Below are positions 1,554 through 63,600 of a stretch of 64,000 nucleotides of DNA, one piece after another (position 1 is the first letter of the stretch; each line of letters starts with the position of its first letter). The notes below the pieces were generated by a model. That model had not been told where the DNA came from. It did not search any database and saw nothing but the letters and a program-made list of their open reading frames with translations. Source of the stretch: Candidatus Woesebacteria bacterium (GTDB lineage: Bacteria; Patescibacteriota; Microgenomatia; UBA8517); assembly GCA_016432365.1 (NCBI GenBank), contig CP066686.1:627992-691991 (forward strand). Reading direction: 5' to 3'. Both the position numbers and the translations under genes were made by a program.

Positions 1554-2498
1554 ATGACTAATTTTTGGCAAAAACTACCCAAACCTTTTACGGTTTTGGC
1601 TCCGATGGACGATGTTACTGATAATGTTTTTAGGCAGGTAGTAATGGAGGCGGGAAGGCCGGATGTGTTTTTCACTGAATTTACGAGTGCGGATGGACTT
1701 GTGTATAATTCGCACGGAATTCCTCTTCGTAAATTAACTTTTACTCCTGGCCAGCATCCGATTGTTGCCCAGATTTGGGGGAAAGATCCGATGTTAATGG
1801 AAAAAGCGGCTGGGATTGTTGCAGACCTTGGTTTTGACGGAATTGACATAAACATGGGTTGCCCAGTTCGGGAGGTGATGAAGCGTGGGGCGGGTGCGGG
1901 GCTTATTGGTAATTATGATTTATCGGGTGAAATTATTAAATCGGTTAAAAACGGGGCGGGAAAAATACCCGTTAGTGTCAAAACTCGGCTAGGAAAAAAT
2001 GAGAATATTGCCCGCGAGTGGTGTACATTTCTTCTAAAACAAAATATTGCGACGCTAACTATTCACGCGAGAACCGCCAAACAGATGTCCGCTTCCCCCG
2101 CAGACTGGAACGAAGTAGCTGAAATTGTAAAAATCAAAAATGAAATTTCTCCCGAGACTGTTATTATCGGAAACGGTGATGTTAAAAGCTATGATGAGGT
2201 TATTGTTCTGTCTGAAAAGTACGGAGTGGATGGGGTAATGATAGGGCGGGGGATTTTTTCAAACCCCTGGGTATTCAACCCCACAACGCTCGCGCTTCGA
2301 GGGGTAAGGCAGGATTATATTGACCTTTTGCTTAAACATATTGATCTATTTGAAAAAACGTGGGGAGATACGAAAAATTTTGCCATAATCAAGAAATTTT
2401 TCAAAATGTATATCAATAATTTTAAAGGCGCAAGTATCTTAAGACAAAAACTAATGGAGGCAAAAAGTTTTGAAGAAATTAAGAAACAGCTAGAATAA
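1554..2498 (+). CDS. dus: tRNA-dihydrouridine synthase (Dus family)
   Basis: FTVLAPMDDVTDNVFRQ motif and TIM-barrel Dus signature. Start moved to the ATG at 1554 after the upstream stop at 1526-1528. Confidence 0.85.
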   Translation: MTNFWQKLPKPFTVLAPMDDVTDNVFRQVVMEAGRPDVFFTEFTSADGLVYNSHGIPLRKLTFTPGQHPIVAQIWGKDPMLMEKAAGIVADLGFDGIDINMGCPVREVMKRGAGAGLIGNYDLSGEIIKSVKNGAGKIPVSVKTRLGKNENIAREWCTFLLKQNIATLTIHARTAKQMSASPADWNEVAEIVKIKNEISPETVIIGNGDVKSYDEVIVLSEKYGVDGVMIGRGIFSNPWVFNPTTLALRGVRQDYIDLLLKHIDLFEKTWGDTKNFAIIKKFFKMYINNFKGASILRQKLMEAKSFEEIKKQLE

Positions 2499-2549
2499 AA
2501 CAATCGCCTTCAATTGGGGGTTAATTATAAATTTTTGATTTTAGAATTC

Positions 2550-3470
2550 TCATTTTGAAGCTTTCTTCTCTTCCCTTTCCCTCGCCCTATCTCCCTGTGC
2601 TTCCCAAACATCCTGGAAAGCTGAACCGGCTTCACCATAAACGCTGTCGGCGACTTCCAAGATTGTAAAGACAGATACATCTTCCGGAACGCCTTCGTCT
2701 GCCCACCTCCAAAGTTTGTTTAGGTCTCTTACATGGTCTCCGTCGACTCCCTGAGCTAACATTCCGGCATGAACCTGATTAAAAATTGCCAATGCTTTCT
2801 TTCTCTCGAGAGCTGTCCAGTCATCAGATAAAAGTGCACTGGTGAGCTCGCTTTTTTCAACAATTGGGGAATCGATAATCGCAGTTGGTTGCGCCTCAAT
2901 TCTGTGTCTGAATAGGAGTCTATCCTGAGAAAATTGGTTACGCATTTCATCAAAAACAGATTGTGCTATTTTTTGGCGCATCTGCCTTAGTTTGGGGTTA
3001 TCCGCCCTGGTTTCGACGATTGCGGTGCAAATCGCGGATGCCAAGTCTATCCGGTCTAATAACTTGTTGGCACTTCCGACATTTTCAGCGCTTTCTATAA
3101 TTGATTTCTCATCTTTTGTTTGATCAAAAAAACTCATATATATGTTTAAAATAGACTCTGCCAACCCATCCTTTTCTAAAGCAGCGGCTATTTCGCGATT
3201 AATTTCCGAAAACTTATCGAGCGCAGTGTTTGCAAGCTCGTTAGCAACTTCGGCTTCAGCTTTGGGAAGACCCGGATTTCTGCTTAAATTGTCGAGTGTG
3301 GCCCATGCTTTTTCTACCCGTTTTTGGCTGTTTGCCCAAAGTACTACAGTATCTTTAGAGTCTTTGTCGATATCTAAGATAGAAATATGGTCAAATTCGG
3401 GGTCCCCCGGACCGCCAATATGAGGAATTGGAAAGAGTACTCGGTTTGAAGTATCGGGTCTAATTTCCAT
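2550..3470 (-). CDS. Hypothetical protein. Compositionally GC-richer than the backbone. Start uncertain: the track start at 3563 would overlap the divergent neighbour.
   Basis: Long ORF with no recognisable motifs. The internal Met (MEIRPDT) gives a non-overlapping start. Confidence 0.45.
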   Translation of the reverse strand: MEIRPDTSNRVLFPIPHIGGPGDPEFDHISILDIDKDSKDTVVLWANSQKRVEKAWATLDNLSRNPGLPKAEAEVANELANTALDKFSEINREIAAALEKDGLAESILNIYMSFFDQTKDEKSIIESAENVGSANKLLDRIDLASAICTAIVETRADNPKLRQMRQKIAQSVFDEMRNQFSQDRLLFRHRIEAQPTAIIDSPIVEKSELTSALLSDDWTALERKKALAIFNQVHAGMLAQGVDGDHVRDLNKLWRWADEGVPEDVSVFTILEVADSVYGEAGSAFQDVWEAQGDRAREREEKKASK

Positions 3471-3552: not shown

Positions 3553-4272
3553 ATGGAGAGCAAAGAAAAGGTAAGCCCAATGAGAGAGTTGTATTTGGAA
3601 GTGACGCGGGCGAGAGAAGTATTGAATGAAGTATTTTTTACTAGTACACCCTTCGTTATGCTGGGTTATAGCCCACGCGAAATCGCTGTTATCCATGGCC
3701 TTTATGACAGAGCGCGCAATGGGGGGGCGAGTGCGGCCGGCGCCTCATTTCCGGGTTGGTGGCATCATGGAGCAAGGTTTGAGGGGGAGTTGGGAGACTT
3801 TACAGTTAATGTAAGCAGGGAAAGAGACTTTGCGTGTTACGGACTGGTGAGTATCGAAACGCAAATTGAAAACGGTTTTAGCACCGCCTATATGCCACAA
3901 CTCTTTCTCTTAAGCAAGGTGGGAAATACTGGTTCTTTAGAACCTTACGAGATTACCCGAAAGGTGTTGTCCGGCGGAATTTATAGACCACACACCGGGT
4001 TATCAAAGTCAGTCGCAAAAATCCCAGGCTTAGAACATCTTGCGAATCGCCGAAGATACGAAAGTGTCTGGTTAGACGAGAGGACAAAAACAGGTCTGGT
4101 AATTAGACTTACCGAACCAAACCACATAATACTTTTAAGGAAGATTTCAAATAGTGCTGAGGAATATGAGGTTTGGGGGATAAAAAAGGATCCTGACCAG
4201 GCAATGTTGGAAAAAGTTTTATCCGAATCGAAGGTTGCAGCAACCCAAGCATTACCCGAACTCTCTTCTTGA
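3553..4272 (+). CDS. Hypothetical protein, divergent from the gene at 2550-3470
   Basis: ORF track. Start at MESKEK or MRELYL. No family recognised. Confidence 0.45.
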   Translation: MESKEKVSPMRELYLEVTRAREVLNEVFFTSTPFVMLGYSPREIAVIHGLYDRARNGGASAAGASFPGWWHHGARFEGELGDFTVNVSRERDFACYGLVSIETQIENGFSTAYMPQLFLLSKVGNTGSLEPYEITRKVLSGGIYRPHTGLSKSVAKIPGLEHLANRRRYESVWLDERTKTGLVIRLTEPNHIILLRKISNSAEEYEVWGIKKDPDQAMLEKVLSESKVAATQALPELSS

Positions 4273-4342
4273 GCGGCCAGGGGGAGTCGGACCCCCGTTT
4301 GTACCTTGGGAAGGTACCGTTAGGCCGTTTAACTATGGCCGC
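4272..4342 (-). tRNA. tRNA-Gly (anticodon CCC). The T-loop reads TCCGACT, which is atypical.
   Basis: Manual fold of the reverse complement: acceptor GCGGCCA/TGGCCGC, D-stem GTTA/TAAC, anticodon stem GTACC/GGTAC with loop TTCCCAA, T-stem GGGGG/CCCCC. Confidence 0.5.
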
Positions 4343-11680: not shown

Positions 11681-11777
11681 ATGTATTTGTTTCCGCCGAC
11701 TTGGCGGGAATAACACAGACGCTGTCGCTTCGTGCGGGCCCTGCCTCGCTGGAACCGAAGCTTTAGCGAGGTGAAAG

Positions 11778-11851
11778 CGGGATCGACGAGATTCGGACTC
11801 GCAACCTCTTCCGTGACAGGGAAGCGCTCTAGCCAGTTGAGCTACGACCCC
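11778..11851 (-). tRNA. tRNA-Asp (anticodon GTC)
   Basis: Canonical cloverleaf: acceptor GGGGTCG/CGATCCC (one GU pair), D-arm GCTC-AACTGGCTA-GAGC, anticodon stem CTTCC/GGAAG with loop CTGTCAC, T-arm GCGAG-TCCGAAT-CTCGT. Confidence 0.85.
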
Positions 11852-26359: not shown

Positions 26360-26998
26360 ATGTTTACTTTACCCGATCTCCCATATGCATATAGTTCATT
26401 GGAGCCCTTCATTGACGAAGAAACTATGCATGTCCATCATGATAAACATCATGCCTCATATGTTAAGAATTTGAATGATCTTTTGACTGGTCATGAAGAC
26501 TTGTTGAATATGGATGTTAATGACTTACTTGTAGATTTACGGAAAGTTCCGGAAGATATCCGTCAAAAAGTTAAAAACAATGCAGGTGGGGTGGCTAATC
26601 ATAATATGTTCTGGACAATAATGAGCGGAAACCCGACGACAGAGGCAAGAAGCCCGAGTGGAAGTTTGAAGAATGAGATTGAAAAGACATTCGGAAGTTT
26701 TGAAGCATTCCAAGAAAAGTTTTCTGCAATGGCACTAGGGCACTTTGGTAGTGGTTGGGCCTGGGTGGTTGTTAATAAGAGTAAGAATATGAGTTTGGAA
26801 ATCGTGGACACTACGAATCAAGACTCTCCTTTCTCGATCTCCAGTATGTACACACCCATCTTATGTTTAGATGTATGGGAACACGCTTACTATCTTAAAT
26901 ATAAAAATATGCGTGCTGACTATATTGAGGCGTGGTGGAATGTAGTTAATTGGACTGAAGTGGATAAGCGATTCCAATCGGTAGCTTTGAATAAATGA
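26360..26998 (+). CDS. sodA: Fe/Mn superoxide dismutase
   Basis: LPDLPYAYSSLEPFIDEETMHVHHDKHH and DVWEHAYYLKY motifs. Confidence 0.9.
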   Translation: MFTLPDLPYAYSSLEPFIDEETMHVHHDKHHASYVKNLNDLLTGHEDLLNMDVNDLLVDLRKVPEDIRQKVKNNAGGVANHNMFWTIMSGNPTTEARSPSGSLKNEIEKTFGSFEAFQEKFSAMALGHFGSGWAWVVVNKSKNMSLEIVDTTNQDSPFSISSMYTPILCLDVWEHAYYLKYKNMRADYIEAWWNVVNWTEVDKRFQSVALNK

Positions 26999-27010
26999 AA
27001 AATAAAATAC

Positions 27011-27047
27011 TCGCCCCGCGAAGCCCTAAGCGCAGTCGAAGGGGCGA
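27011..27047. other. GC-rich hairpin (TCGCCCC...GGGGCGA) inserted between the sodA stop and a relic alternative sodA 3' end (27051-27114)
   Basis: Inverted repeat read directly. There is no U-run, so it is not a classic terminator. Confidence 0.4.
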
Positions 27048-27050
27048 AGT

Positions 27051-27114
27051 GGGGTGGAATGTTGTTAATTGGAAAGAAGTTGAGAGAAGGTTTGAGGAGG
27101 TGATAGCAAAATGA
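27051..27114 (+). pseudogene. Relic or duplicated sodA C-terminal coding fragment (VGWNVVNWKEVERRFEEVIAK*). It ends in an ATGA overlap with the downstream gene.
   Basis: About 70 percent nucleotide identity with the sodA tail WWNVVNWTEVDKRFQS. In-frame stop TGA at 27112-27114 overlapping the ATG at 27111. Confidence 0.45.
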
Positions 27115-27383
27115 TGTGGAATAACAGTTACGGAAGTTATTGGTACCCTGGTGCCGCTTTTGGTGGTTTAATGGCAGGTTTTTCATTTCTATTGATCCCA
27201 CTCCTTGTTTGGAGTCTTTTTTGGAAAGGTTGGGCACTCTGGAAAGCTGCTAAAAATGACAGCAAGCCTTGGTTTGTTGCGTTGTTATTAATAAATACAA
27301 TGGGGATTTTGGACATTCTGTATATTTACGTCTTTGGTAAAGAGGTTAAAGAAGTCAAAAAATCTTCAAAAAGAAAGAAATAA
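27111..27383 (+). CDS. Small Trp-rich two-TM membrane protein (90 aa)
   Basis: GGAGGTG ribosome-binding site 8 nt upstream, two hydrophobic helices, K-rich tail. Confidence 0.55.
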   Translation: MMWNNSYGSYWYPGAAFGGLMAGFSFLLIPLLVWSLFWKGWALWKAAKNDSKPWFVALLLINTMGILDILYIYVFGKEVKEVKKSSKRKK

Positions 27384-27456
27384 GTAAACATATTGACAAA
27401 GTTTTTAAATCTTTGTAGACTCGTGTTCTGTTCTTTTATTTACTAAGAAACAAAAC

Positions 27457-27541
27457 GCGGGTGCTAGTTTAGTGGCAAAACGTTTGCATATGAGGCATGC
27501 TGATTATGCAAAAATCGAGGGTTCAAATCCCTTCACCCGCT
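27457..27541 (+). tRNA. tRNA-like gene 1 (85 nt). Canonical acceptor, D and T arms, but an aberrant anticodon arm: an 8-bp stem TTTGCATA/TATGCAAA enclosing a 14-nt loop with a GCATGC palindrome. Possibly a Leu(GAG)-like type-II tRNA; identity is uncertain.
   Basis: Acceptor GCGGGTG/CACCCGC, D-arm GTTT-AGTGGCA-AAAC, T-arm GAGGG-TTCAAAT-CCCTT. There are 53 nt between the acceptor and T-stem instead of 41. Confidence 0.5.
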
Positions 27542-27631
27542 TTTGGTGGGCACCGATCAAAAACCCTGTCTGGGACCAGATGGCAACAGTCGAAGATTGT
27601 TGAGCTGATGGGGTGTCCACCATTTTTCACC

Positions 27632-27704
27632 GGCGCCGTGGCCAAGTGGCAAGGCACAGGCTTAAGCAATACCTGGATCCGAGGTTCGAATCCTTGCGGC
27701 GCCT
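27632..27704 (+). tRNA. tRNA-like gene 2 (73 nt). Class-I length, but the anticodon stem is only CAGG/CCTG around a 9-11-nt loop CTTAAGCAATA containing a GCTTAAGC palindrome. No canonical 7-nt loop can be formed.
   Basis: Acceptor GGCGCCG/CGGCGCC is perfect. T-arm CGAGG-TTCGAAT-CCTTG. D-loop AGTGGCA. Confidence 0.5.
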
Positions 27705-27825
27705 TTCGGGAAATAGTGCCCATAAAACCCGACATTTAGCACCAGATGCTGGTGACTGAGTGGAATGCTGAGGTTCAGGAGTGGACATTACTGGACCATT
27801 TAGTAAGTTCTTTAAATTCTTTTGT

Positions 27826-27898
27826 GCGGGTGTAGCTCAGTGGGAGAGCATCTCCTTTTGTAAGGAGAAGGTTGGAGGTTCGAGTCCTCTCACCCGCT
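27826..27898 (+). tRNA. tRNA-like gene 3 (73 nt). Canonical, except for an 8-nt anticodon loop TTTTGTAA (Thr-TGT-like with one extra nucleotide).
   Basis: Acceptor GCGGGTG/CACCCGC, D-arm GCTC-AGTGGGA-GAGC, anticodon stem TCTCC/GGAGA, T-arm GGAGG-TTCGAGT-CCTCT. Confidence 0.55.
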
Positions 27899-27982
27899 TT
27901 TAGTGGGCGCCAGTCGGACTCTTTATCCGTCTTGGTAGACTGATCAGGATCCATGGTCCAAAATTGGTCGTGCCCACTATCT

Positions 27983-28056
27983 TGGCCGGTAGCTCAGCCG
28001 TTTAGAGCACTCGACGCGAAATCGAGTTGTCGGAGGTTCAAATCCTTCCCGGCCAG
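27983..28056 (+). tRNA. tRNA-like gene 4 (74 nt). Well-formed cloverleaf with anticodon loop CGCGAAA, which is Ser-CGA-like but has G at position 33 and a class-I body. The 1-72 pair is U-A.
   Basis: Acceptor TGGCCGG/CCGGCCA, D-arm GCTC-AGCCGTTTA-GAGC, anticodon stem CTCGA/TCGAG, T-arm GGAGG-TTCAAAT-CCTTC. Confidence 0.5.
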
Positions 28057-28173
28057 CTTGCCAATTACCTACGTCCTCAGGATGGAGGGTAAGCGGCAGA
28101 TAGGTGCCATAGATACCGCCATGCCAAAGCAGATGCGGCAGGACAAGGTGTTTGTGGCACTTAGAAATTATCA

Positions 28174-28250
28174 GGGCAGGTTATCTGTCAAACATTATTC
28201 ACAAATAATTGTTTGATTTATAGACAGATACCTGCCCTTTTCGTTTTTTG
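28174..28250 (+). terminator. Long hairpin (GGGCAGGTTATCTGTC ... GACAGATACCTGCCC) followed by a T-rich run; terminator of the tRNA cluster
   Basis: 15-bp stem with a 33-nt loop holding a nested hairpin, followed by ttttcgttttttg. Confidence 0.55.
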
Positions 28251-28268
28251 TTAGGGTATAATTTAGTT

Positions 28269-28790
28269 ATGCTTATTTTAGGAATAGATCCCGGTACGGC
28301 TACAACCGGTTTCGGACTTGTTCGTTTAAACGGAAAAGGAAACGAAGTTGTTACATGGGGGCTTATTGAGACAAGCAAAACTCTTCTTAAAGAGCGCAGG
28401 CTAGACTTCATATTTGAGGAAACCGTAGCACTTATAAAAAAACATAAGCCAGATGTTTTTGTTTTCGAAAAAGTTTTTTTCTCCACCAATGCGAAAACTG
28501 TGATTGCCGTGGGCCAGGCCCAAGGTGTGATGTTGTTGGCGGCCAGTAAAACTAACGTTCATGTTGAGGAATACGCGCCGGGAACTATTAAAAAAATGAT
28601 TACAGGTTCGGGCCGTGCAAATAAAAAGGAAGTTCAGGAGCATGTTCGAAGGATATTGGGAAGTAGAGTTAAAAGCGAAGCTCATAAAAAAACTCATTTT
28701 GATAATGCAGCGGACGCTTTGGCAATAGCACTCACGCACGCGTTTAAATTAGGCGAAAACGAAAAGGAGGGGGTGACGAAAGTTGTTTAA
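28269..28790 (+). CDS. ruvC: Crossover junction endodeoxyribonuclease RuvC
   Basis: MLILGIDPGTATTGFGLV N-terminus and an RNase H-like fold. TATAAT at 28258-28263 upstream. Confidence 0.85.
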   Translation: MLILGIDPGTATTGFGLVRLNGKGNEVVTWGLIETSKTLLKERRLDFIFEETVALIKKHKPDVFVFEKVFFSTNAKTVIAVGQAQGVMLLAASKTNVHVEEYAPGTIKKMITGSGRANKKEVQEHVRRILGSRVKSEAHKKTHFDNAADALAIALTHAFKLGENEKEGVTKVV

Positions 28791-29028
28791 AGTAGGCAAA
28801 GTTACTCATTATTACGATAAATTGGGAGTTGCTATAGTGGAACTGGACGGAACACTTTCTGTTAACGACAAGGTCAAATTTATGCGGGATGGGGAAATGT
28901 TGTTCGAACAGAACGTCGATTCGATTCAGGTCGAGCATGAAAAAAAAGATACCGCAAACAAGGGGGACGTGGTCGGGTTAAAAACTCAAGATGTTGTTAA
29001 GGAGGGAGCTGACGTATACAAATTGTAA
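28783..29028 (+). CDS. Small beta-barrel protein resembling EF-Tu domain 2 (stand-alone translation-factor-like domain)
   Basis: Pattern GVAIVELDGTLSVNDKVKF ... VDSIQVEHEKKDTANKGDVVGLK matches the GTP_EFTU_D2 consensus. Confidence 0.45.
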   Translation: MFKVGKVTHYYDKLGVAIVELDGTLSVNDKVKFMRDGEMLFEQNVDSIQVEHEKKDTANKGDVVGLKTQDVVKEGADVYKL

Positions 29029-63524: not shown

Positions 63525-63600
63525 GGTGGTCGTAGCTCAATGGTAGAGCACTAGCTTGTGGAGCTAGGTGTTGCGGGTTCAAATCCCGTCGACCACCCCA
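63525..63600 (+). tRNA. tRNA-His (anticodon GTG) with the encoded G-1 and an encoded CCA
   Basis: G-1 plus acceptor GTGGTCG/CGACCAC, D-arm GCTC-AATGGTA-GAGC, anticodon stem CTAGC/GCTAG with loop TTGTGGA, T-arm GCGGG-TTCAAAT-CCCGT, discriminator C, CCA. Confidence 0.88.

Follow-up and report, generated by a model that had tools for sequence, protein, structure and literature searches.

What does a tRNA gene yield when its acceptor stem, D arm and T arm are kept and its anticodon arm is not? The question is raised by four transfer RNA (tRNA)-like genes, called genes 1 to 4 here, which are arranged head to tail (+ strand) in the chromosome of a Candidatus Woesebacteria (Patescibacteria) bacterium, with a DUF5652 gene on one side and ruvC on the other. 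They were analysed within a stretch of 64 kb (contig CP066686.1), referred to as the window; all coordinates are positions in it, and L-numbers denote the related loci and contigs used for comparison. In the original prediction, the four genes were described as a cluster with expanded or aberrant anticodon arms, for which short introns, non-standard decoding, tRNA-derived regulatory RNAs, decay of a horizontally acquired array and an error of manual folding were all considered. Here, we report that the cluster belongs to a larger conserved operon, which is lineage-specific and patchy and in which close relatives have exchanged anticodon arms as cassettes. We propose, as a reading with about an even chance of being correct, that this island is an accessory polycistron of irregular tRNAs, which would be cut by RNase P and RNase Z and whose members may be charged and would not be normal decoders.

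Anatomy of the four tRNA-like genes

Seven tRNA genes were called in the window by ARAGORN, including genes 1 to 4, and the Rfam tRNA model RF00005 (gathering score 29 bits) matched each of these four over its full length (model positions 1-71) with a score above gathering (Table 1). The calls, the model alignments and our own parse agree that the four genes are tRNA-like and that their anticodon arms are abnormal, and the suspicion that the manual folding might be wrong can be dropped, since it was essentially correct. Each gene shows the features of a tRNA fold, namely an acceptor stem of 7 base pairs (bp), a D arm and a T arm with a GUUCRANYC-type loop, and the parse gives a T stem of 5 bp and a variable loop of 4-5 nucleotides (nt). 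The acceptor stems and T arms had been foreseen correctly, and the AGTGG D loop ascribed to all four genes stands except in gene 4, where the D loop is AGCCGUUUA.

The anticodon arms have the dimensions originally described. In gene 1, the 5' part was parsed as GCGGGUG-CUA-GUUU-AGUGGCA-AAAC-G and is followed by an anticodon stem of 8 bp (UUUGCAUA/UAUGCAAA) around a 14-nt loop (UGAGGCAUGCUGAU), so that 20 nt separate the strands of the canonical 5-bp stem and a stretch of 18 nt stands against 5 positions of RF00005; the gene has U73 and, in place of a 2-nt linker, one of 3 nt (CUA) from the acceptor to the D stem, and its acceptor GCGGGUG is shared with gene 3, as had been noticed. Gene 2 (acceptor GGCGCCG, U73) has the anticodon stem CAGG/CCUG and an 11-nt loop (CUUAAGCAAUA) with GCA within it, or a 9-nt loop when a C.A pair is assigned to the stem, and 8 nt are aligned to 6 model positions. 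Gene 3 has the stem UCUCC/GGAGA and an 8-nt loop (UUUUGUAA), which corresponds to a single inserted U in the alignment. Gene 4, with a class I body, U1-A72 and G73, is aligned without gaps, and its stem CUCGA/UCGAG closes a 7-nt loop, CGCGAAA, with G at position 33.

None of the four genes therefore has the arm of a canonical elongator tRNA (5-bp stem, 7-nt loop, U33 and purine 37). ARAGORN labelled them His-atg, Ala-agc, Tyr-gta and Ser-cga, with Ser- or Tyr-type 'anticodons' on class I bodies, and when introns were allowed, gene 2 became Cys-aca with a 2-nt 'intron' and gene 1 was drawn with a weak long variable arm. These anticodon and isotype calls are artefacts of a forced 7-nt loop and are unstable, so the outcome named beforehand as a refutation, that predictors would return canonical 7-nt loops for all four genes, did not arise. 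In the window's three other tRNAs, the anticodon loop has the normal 7 nt, in agreement with the earlier description of these tRNAs as ordinary, and CCA is encoded neither in them nor in the island genes. As a separate observation, the T loops of tRNA-Gly(CCC) (4271-4342, - strand; UCCGACU) and tRNA-Asp(GUC) (11777-11851, - strand; UCCGAAU) place C at position 55, which in tRNAs is nearly always U (pseudouridine 55), and the usual UUCRA T loop is present in tRNA-His (63526-63600) and in the four island genes.

Distribution of the island and variation of its anticodon arms

Relatives were collected by a RuvC-based scan with one genome per species, which gave 22 loci, assigned to Candidatus Woesebacteria or Patescibacteria wherever named. 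Gene order is identical in all of them, and the flanks are syntenic housekeeping genes. In 13 of the 22 loci, the DUF5652-ruvC gap measures 48-165 nt and holds no island, which indicates that the island is dispensable at this site; in the other nine (L001, L002, L006, L007, L009, L010, L013, L014 and L015), the gap is a non-coding island of 470-920 nt. Every long gap holds a TTGACA-type promoter, one to four tRNA-like genes, long spacers, a conserved hairpin and a GGGCAGG...CCUGCCC terminator. Additional islands were found in metagenomes through RuvC homologues and a DNA pattern for the family of gene 2 (family B below), and all Woesebacteria-type matches to this pattern lie inside islands, within the limited recall of the pattern. 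From the syntenic islands and the confinement of family B to them, we conclude that the cluster is one module of a lineage-specific, patchy non-coding operon. Family B as the ordinary tRNA-Cys of Woesebacteria was considered and set aside, as the other pattern matches (L074, L083 and others) belong to unrelated GC-rich organisms. At L016:3836-4000, the 165-nt gap has no tRNA-like genes and retains a terminator-like hairpin (ggcagtttactgtc...gcctgccc), which may be the remnant of a lost island or a terminator older than the island.

A covariance model built from 28 island genes gave 64 matches in 41 sources, from which 47 distinct island genes were parsed after removal of the window's three housekeeping tRNAs and of repeated sequences. 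They fall into family A (genes 1 and 3; acceptor GCGGGUG, U73), whose canonical members carry Thr anticodons in the loops UUCGUAA and UUUGUAA, family B (gene 2; acceptor GGCGCCG, U73, Cys-like) and family C (gene 4; U1-A72, discriminator G or A). In this alignment, the proportion of paired cells is 94-100% for the acceptor, D and T stems, apart from the D stem of family B, where the fourth pair is absent under a four-pair parse. For the anticodon stems, it is 92-100%, with two to six standard pair types per position, and the mean pairwise identity of these stems is 0.37-0.44, compared with 0.63-0.83 for the acceptor stems and 0.83-0.88 for the T loops. Such consistent pairing at such low identity means that the anticodon helix is selected and its sequence is not.

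The loops vary even in size. Canonical loops (7 nt, U33, purine 37) are present in just 12 of the 47 genes, loop lengths range from 5 to 65 nt, and six genes (window gene 1, L070:3427, L002:3633, L009:3557 and two in L105) have inserts of 20-65 nt, most of which fold into an extension hairpin. At orthologous positions, the 'anticodons' of family C read CGA, GGG, AGG, GAA, AUU, UUA and GGU, and those of family A include CGU, UGU, GGU, GCU, CCA, CUC, GUC and UAC; an anticodon conserved among orthologues and fitting the identity elements of its body was not found. U8 is missing in 10 of the 47 genes. Some features are kept within families. Family B has U73 in all 13 members and GCA within the loop in 12 of them, including gene 2. 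Many family A loops retain G35-U36-A37-A38 behind a varying 5' side (UUC-, UUU-, UGU-, UUUU-, UGUU-). The loop of gene 3 equals the UUUGUAA of a Thr-type relative (L014) with one added U; its orthologues in L014, L013 and L090 have the canonical loops UUUGUAA or UUCGUAA, its whole anticodon arm is identical in L001:3557-3629, and other 8-nt loops occur in L086 (UGUUGUAA) and L084 (UUUUUAAA). Likewise, single loops recur on different stems: GCGCAGC is closed by UGAGU/ACUCA in L001 and by CAGGU/ACCUG in L002, and is also present in L013 and L014, and GCAGCAAC is closed by CCUUG/CAAGG (L070), CCAGA/UCUGG (L088) and CCUUG/CAGGG (L105). Both are family B loops, whose outermost nucleotides (the 32-38 closing pair) covary as G-C, A-U and G-U, which indicates that the arm in fact has a stem of 6 bp and a loop of 5-6 nt. 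Genes 1 and 2 of the window are outliers within their families. Palindromes of at least 6 nt were seen in 10 of the 47 loops, four of these being the same loop, which is about the level of shuffled loops, and palindromic loops as kissing or dimerisation signals were rejected for this lack of enrichment.

Replacement of anticodon arms is most visible against L001, whose RuvC is 96% identical to that of the window. Between the two, identity is 95-100% throughout the right half of the island, except for the segment of gene 4 from the D arm to the variable loop, the flanks of which are 97-99% identical. The 41 nt of this segment contain 24 of the 37 right-half differences (binomial P ~1e-16), and the anticodon arms of gene 4 match at 8 of 18 positions. 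In the left half, which is more diverged, identity is lowest in the anticodon arms of genes 1 and 2 (0.40 and 0.48, versus 0.73-0.96 elsewhere). Furthermore, the metagenome contigs L084 and L086 encode an identical RuvC protein (P0001), yet their family A genes and spacer modules differ. Block replacement relative to L001 and the differences between L084 and L086 together argue that the locus changes through segment exchange, which would take place between the conserved 5' and T-arm stretches common to tRNA genes. For reference, the L084 island (2400-3010) has the acceptor GCAGAUA with the loop UUUUUAAA, and the L086 island (540-1180) has GCGGAUA with UGUUGUAA.

Promoter, structured spacers and terminator

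The four genes appear, as judged from sequence, to be part of one non-coding transcription unit of ~860 nt (27393-28249), the parts of which are listed in Table 1.

Table 1. Positions of the tRNA-like genes and of the other elements of the island in the window
Feature	Coordinates	Strand	Description
Sigma-70-type promoter	27393-27421	+	TTGACA-17 nt-TAGACT; 10/12 positions match
tRNA-like gene 1	27457-27541	+	ARAGORN; RF00005 40.9 bits; family A
Spacer 1 (S1 module)	27542-27631	+	11-bp closing stem GGUGGGCACC/GGUGUCCACC; two inner hairpins
tRNA-like gene 2	27632-27704	+	ARAGORN; RF00005 48.3 bits; family B, Cys-type
Spacer 2	27705-27825	+	structured, z = -2.6; found only in the window
tRNA-like gene 3	27826-27898	+	ARAGORN; RF00005 64.7 bits; family A, Thr-type
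Spacer 3 (second S1 module)	27899-27982	+	closed by AGUGGGC/GCCCACU; z = -4.1
tRNA-like gene 4	27983-28057	+	ARAGORN; RF00005 57.3 bits; family C, class I body
3' hairpin 1	28058-28099	+	UUGCC...GGCAG with inner CCUC-AGGAUG-GAGG hairpin
3' hairpin 2 (S4 module)	28100-28166	+	long hairpin closed by GGUGCCAUA/UGUGGCACU
Intrinsic terminator	28172-28249	+	stem GGGCAGGU...ACCUGCCC, then U-run; z = -5.2

The promoter is the only promoter-like site within 27000-28500; its hexamers and the downstream cgtgttctgttcttt stretch are kept in L001 and L002, and equivalent TTGACA promoters are present in L006, L007, L013, L014, L015, L088 and L105. The long-range stems originally proposed to close the spacers between genes 1 and 2 and between genes 3 and 4 were borne out, since both spacers fold better than shuffled sequences and their stems covary in relatives. 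Spacer 1 has a minimum free energy of -36.5 kcal/mol (z = -3.3 versus shuffles), with compensatory changes at 6 of 10 pairs of its closing stem (10-11 bp; 8 sequences), and for spacer 3, which is 95% identical to its counterpart in L001, none of 200 shuffles folds equally well. These S1 modules come after family A genes in many islands. In spacer 2, the segment 27706-27806 had no BLAST match in any related locus, the 3' end (uuuaguaaguucuuuaaauucuuuugu) resembles the leader that precedes a gene in L001 and L002, and L001 has just ~15 nt at this position. A third spacer module, S2, which occurs for example in L002, L013, L014, L084 and L090, is missing from the window.

Downstream of gene 4, the single large terminator hairpin of the original prediction is real, and the same GGGCAGG/CCUGCCC terminator closes the islands of 14 relatives; however, two strong hairpins come before it, and the fold of 28058-28170 gives z = -7.8. 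The first is 98% identical to L001 and has a counterpart with compensated stems in L002. The second, S4, is the most widely conserved non-tRNA element and is found in nearly every island; RNAalifold on nine islands gave 20 pairs, 14 of them with compensatory changes. The compensatory changes in S4 and S1 indicate that the spacers are selected RNA structures. The trailers start with UU directly after the discriminator, and a UU-starting trailer without encoded CCA fits the substrates of RNase Z.

Other identities for these elements were also considered. No Rfam family except tRNA (YrlA Y RNA, ROOL and GOLLD included in the search) matches the window region or seven islands, and ARAGORN found no transfer-messenger RNA in the window. 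A Y RNA would also be expected beside an rsr (Ro60) gene, and the neighbours here are DUF5652 and ruvC. Matches to rox2 and Yfr10 on the AT-rich terminator, to Plastid-ycf2 and, in L002, to sR20 were at chance level only and were rejected as spacer or hairpin families. The open reading frames (ORFs) at 27497-27739 and 27953-28216 were rejected as coding, having no Pfam match and overlapping the tRNA genes. Structured trailers as a general habit of tRNA genes in this organism were likewise rejected, the three housekeeping tRNAs having no S1-like closed stems. Four CAGGA motifs were found by eye within ~400 nt of spacers and hairpins (27775, 27945, 28079 and 28137), and one of them, in the loop of the CCUC-AGGAUG-GAGG hairpin, resembles a CsrA-type binding site, again by eye.

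The genes upstream of the island encode GGDEF, DnaE, L19, YraN, SOD and DUF5652 proteins, and those downstream encode RuvC, a PhageMetallopep-domain protein, a HolA-like protein and PGM. Directly after ruvC, an ORF of 81 amino acids (28783-29028, + strand) weakly resembles EF-Tu domain 2, with a score of 28.3 bits that does not reach the cut-off, and ORFs of 79-82 amino acids are called at the matching position in relatives. In one clade (L009-type loci; L096:2732-3859), small ORFs with a GIY-YIG domain flank ruvC on both sides and adjoin the island.

Possible products, alternative explanations and known systems

According to our proposal, one transcript would run from 27422 to ~28250 from a strong promoter, carrying two U73 units with a Thr/Gly-type acceptor, one Cys-type unit (U73, GCA) and one U1-A72 unit. 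The conserved upper half of each unit (acceptor, D/T elbow, T arm and the CCA-less 3' end with UU) would be recognised by RNase P, RNase Z and the CCA-adding enzyme, so that each tRNA-shaped unit would be cleaved out by the two RNases and then receive CCA. The products would be four irregular tRNAs, folded S1 and S4-type RNAs and other spacer RNAs, the hairpin RNAs having 45-120 nt. The anticodon arm would be only the lower helix of the L shape, with its sequence, loop length and 'anticodon' free to vary and swapped as cassettes by recombination. Because the arm seems to be needed only as a helix and its contents are free and exchanged, it is unlikely that the products are ordinary decoders. 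Aminoacylation may still occur in some of them, as the Cys-type unit keeps both U73 and the GCA anticodon, the main determinants for cysteinyl-tRNA synthetase (CysRS) (PMC5389517), and many Thr-type members keep G35-U36. In that case, their role would lie outside normal decoding, or they would simply serve the spacer RNAs as modules for processing and stability, and the working products could be the tRNA-like RNAs, the spacers or both. Among the options first listed, tRNA-derived RNAs with a non-standard role best fit the comparative data.

Several members fit badly with ordinary decoding. UUA, an ochre-suppressor-like anticodon, is found in canonical-looking loops at L007:3755-3829 and L010:2891-2966, and TAA ends 3 of 7 neighbouring ORFs in L007 and 4 of 8 in L010, ruvC among them; A34 anticodons (AGG, AUU) also occur among the island genes. 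Long loops, UUA members beside TAA stops, A34, the lost U8 and the dispensability of the island together disfavour ordinary decoding, though they do not prove its absence.

Certain observations weigh against our proposal. Several members in relatives look canonical, namely Thr-CGU and Thr-UGU (L013, L014, L090), Trp-CCA (L001), Phe-GAA (L013) and Val-UAC (L072), so functional and non-functional tRNAs may stand side by side in the operon. A functional though unusual tRNA-Cys would account just as well for the GCA and U73 kept in family B. If canonical Thr and Cys tRNAs are absent elsewhere in the genome, some island genes must decode. In addition, the anticodon arms of window genes 1, 2 and 4 were seen in no other assembly, and no partner, target or dependent enzyme was identified.

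The alternative that deserves most attention, although we regard it as unlikely, is that the genes are working decoders with unusual loops, gene 3 being a sufJ-like tRNA-Thr that reads four bases or shifts by +1, gene 2 the tRNA-Cys of the organism and gene 4 an isoacceptor that tolerates G33. The four scores far above the gathering threshold, the perfect acceptor, D and T arms, the retention of GCA and U73 in family B and the canonical form of some orthologues speak for this, as does gene 3, whose loop is a canonical one with one more U and is identical in a second species. However, the 'anticodons' of family C vary freely at orthologous positions among close relatives, ochre-suppressor anticodons are present where TAA is a frequent stop codon, the island is absent from more than half of the sampled relatives, and Woesebacteria-type family B copies are found only within islands. 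The loops of 11 and 14-20 nt in genes 2 and 1 have no recognised decoding mode, and we know of no decoding by anticodon loops of such lengths. Quadruplet or otherwise non-standard decoding, as originally suggested, is possible for gene 3 with its 8-nt loop and cannot explain genes 1 and 2. The sole overlapping ORF pair checked for a need of +1 frameshifting, a transglutaminase-like gene and uvrC, consists of two separate genes.

Neutral decay of an accessory tRNA operon, in which anticodon loops are hit first and deletion is under way as in many relatives, is improbable in our view. It would account for the patchy presence of the island, for L016 with its terminator remnant only, for the outlying position of genes 1 and 2 and for the loss of U8 in about a fifth of the genes. 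Decay is contradicted by stems that remain 92-100% paired, with many compensatory changes, across species with RuvC 72-96% identical, by non-canonical loop types conserved on different stems, by the conserved promoter, spacers and terminator, and by differences that are clustered replacements and not scattered substitutions (P ~1e-16). The idea of a degenerating array of horizontal origin is not supported, given the same compensated stems and conserved odd loops and the lack of a phage or foreign source: IMG/VR scans with the family B and C patterns gave unrelated ordinary tRNAs only, and a phage-derived tRNA cluster was rejected because no related viral tRNAs were found there and the flanks are syntenic housekeeping genes, not a prophage.

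Another explanation, which has a poor chance of being right, takes the tRNA bodies as scaffolds that display variable trans-acting hairpins for antisense, decoy, phage or host interactions. The cassette-like replacement of anticodon arms between near-identical genomes, the turnover of modules between strains sharing the same RuvC and the combination of a conserved scaffold with a strong promoter would suit such a role. On the other hand, 2.9 million viral contigs gave no exact match to 20-23-mers from three long inserts, complementarity to other sequences of the window does not exceed chance, loop palindromes are not enriched, and many loops have just 5-8 nt. The loop of gene 1 has one 12/14 complementary match, to the sodA + strand mRNA at 26445-26458 (UGAGGCAUG contiguous), which is not significant with 0.25 expected, and the loop of gene 2 has no trans target within the window. 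In a related and similarly speculative form, which we would not expect to hold, the tRNA body would give stability and precise RNase P/RNase Z excision to a hypervariable hairpin cassette that takes the place of the anticodon arm and is exchanged among strains by recombination. The locus would then lie outside translation, as an RNA-level diversity system of CPR bacteria, with decoys or guides directed for example against phages, toxins or the host.

Least of all do we expect that the extra nucleotides are short introns or insertions removed after transcription to leave normal 7-nt loops, as had also been suggested: a plausible 7-nt loop does stand ahead of the hairpin insert in UUGGUAA (L105:2258), UUUUUAU (L009:3557) and UUGUUUA (L002:3633), and ARAGORN can force intron models, but chance alone would usually supply such a 7-mer, and bulge-helix-bulge geometry is lacking in genes 1-3, the arm of gene 1 being an unbroken 8-bp helix capped by a loop and genes 2 and 3 having only 1-4 extra nt. 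In addition, the inserts (1-13 nt in the window, up to 65 nt in relatives) are far from the >200 nt that group I introns (RF00028) need, no intron family matched at E <= 1 or E <= 0.5, the inserts vary in length and sequence among orthologues, and gene 4 has G33 despite having no insert. To the best of our knowledge, there is no bacterial enzyme for splicing such short inserts. The two anticodon-arm inserts in L105 (2258-2375 and 2587-2716) have 53 nt and 65 nt, and the one at 2258, where the insert comes after a canonical-looking UUGGUAA and pairs with the anticodon region so that a relaxed bulge-helix-bulge can be drawn, is the only intron-like case.

In the literature, we found no description of such clusters in Woesebacteria or the Candidate Phyla Radiation (CPR); for a complete Microgenomates genome, the report is simply of 51 tRNA genes that cover all codons (PMC7143001). 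Nearest to the island among known systems are the irregular-tRNA polycistrons and allo-tRNAs described by Mukai et al. (2017, NAR 45:2776; PMC5389517), which are attributed to Acidobacteria and other phyla, lie near toxin-antitoxin genes and have very diverse anticodons, and some of which are charged in vitro yet unused in translation. Like those polycistrons, the island appears to unite several irregular tRNAs in one unit, with diverse anticodons on similar bodies, and some of their members, having U73 with a GCU anticodon or an extra loop between acceptor and D arm, are island-like. In contrast, allo-tRNAs have a 12-bp acceptor branch of 8/4 or 9/3 geometry and a long variable arm, whereas the island genes are 7/5 and class I, which makes the island a different variant. 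The island also differs in that its irregularity is concentrated in the anticodon arm, its host belongs to the CPR, its flanks are housekeeping genes and its unit contains conserved structured spacers.

Other systems share single features with the island. SufJ and the yeast mitochondrial tRNA-Thr(UAG) have 8-nt loops, and gene 3 is likewise Thr-type with an extra nucleotide on the 5' side of the loop. Gene 3 thus has the structure of a SufJ-like tRNA, with an 8-nt loop in an otherwise normal tRNA, which does not by itself establish four-base reading; moreover, SufJ is a laboratory suppressor mutation and the mitochondrial tRNA serves codon reassignment, whereas the sister genes in the islands carry arbitrary loops. 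In mascRNA (the 3' end of MALAT1) and in bacterial spacer sRNAs flanked by tRNAs, such as 3'ETS-leuZ, a tRNA-shaped upper half recruits RNase P and RNase Z and frees a neighbouring RNA, as we propose for the island; mascRNA is eukaryotic, however, and ETS sponges flank ordinary tRNAs, so the island differs from both. The mascRNA-menRNA model (RF01684, gathering score 42.5) gave weak matches to gene 2 (29.6 bits) and L002:3466 (25.7 bits), and since both scores are below gathering, the island genes are not assigned to this family. The pseudo-tRNA tRNA-Other from Bacillus cereus and a non-proteinogenic tRNA-Gly from Staphylococcus, both cited in PMC5389517, are tRNA-shaped RNAs, aminoacylated or possibly so, with roles outside ordinary decoding. 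Compared with these two, island members may also be aminoacylated but are clustered and have irregular loops. The Bacillus and Staphylococcus RNAs have normal 7-nt loops, single genes and known partners (LysRS and FemXAB). Finally, the accessory tRNA arrays of bacteria and phages are clustered, dispensable and fast-changing like the island, but consist of many mostly canonical tRNAs packed head to tail, whereas an island has one to four mostly irregular genes with long structured spacers. An unrelated GC-rich metagenome contig (L069:1-3226) with 32 head-to-tail tRNA genes in 3.2 kb illustrates such a dense array.

Automatic labels such as His, Ala, Tyr, Ser, Pro or suppressor may mislead inferences about the tRNA complement and the genetic code of CPR bacteria when they are given to genes of this kind. 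The locus offers a clean system for studying the role of the anticodon arm in tRNA identity, with GCA and U73 kept around 5-6-nt loops and with conserved 8-nt loops of the Thr type, and it is also suited to the study of diversification by cassette exchange. If the island is made and processed as we propose, CPR bacteria with reduced genomes keep a strongly promoted operon of tRNA-shaped RNAs that are released from decoding, which would be another bacterial instance of tRNA architecture reused beyond codon reading and a natural example of a 'tRNA scaffold'.

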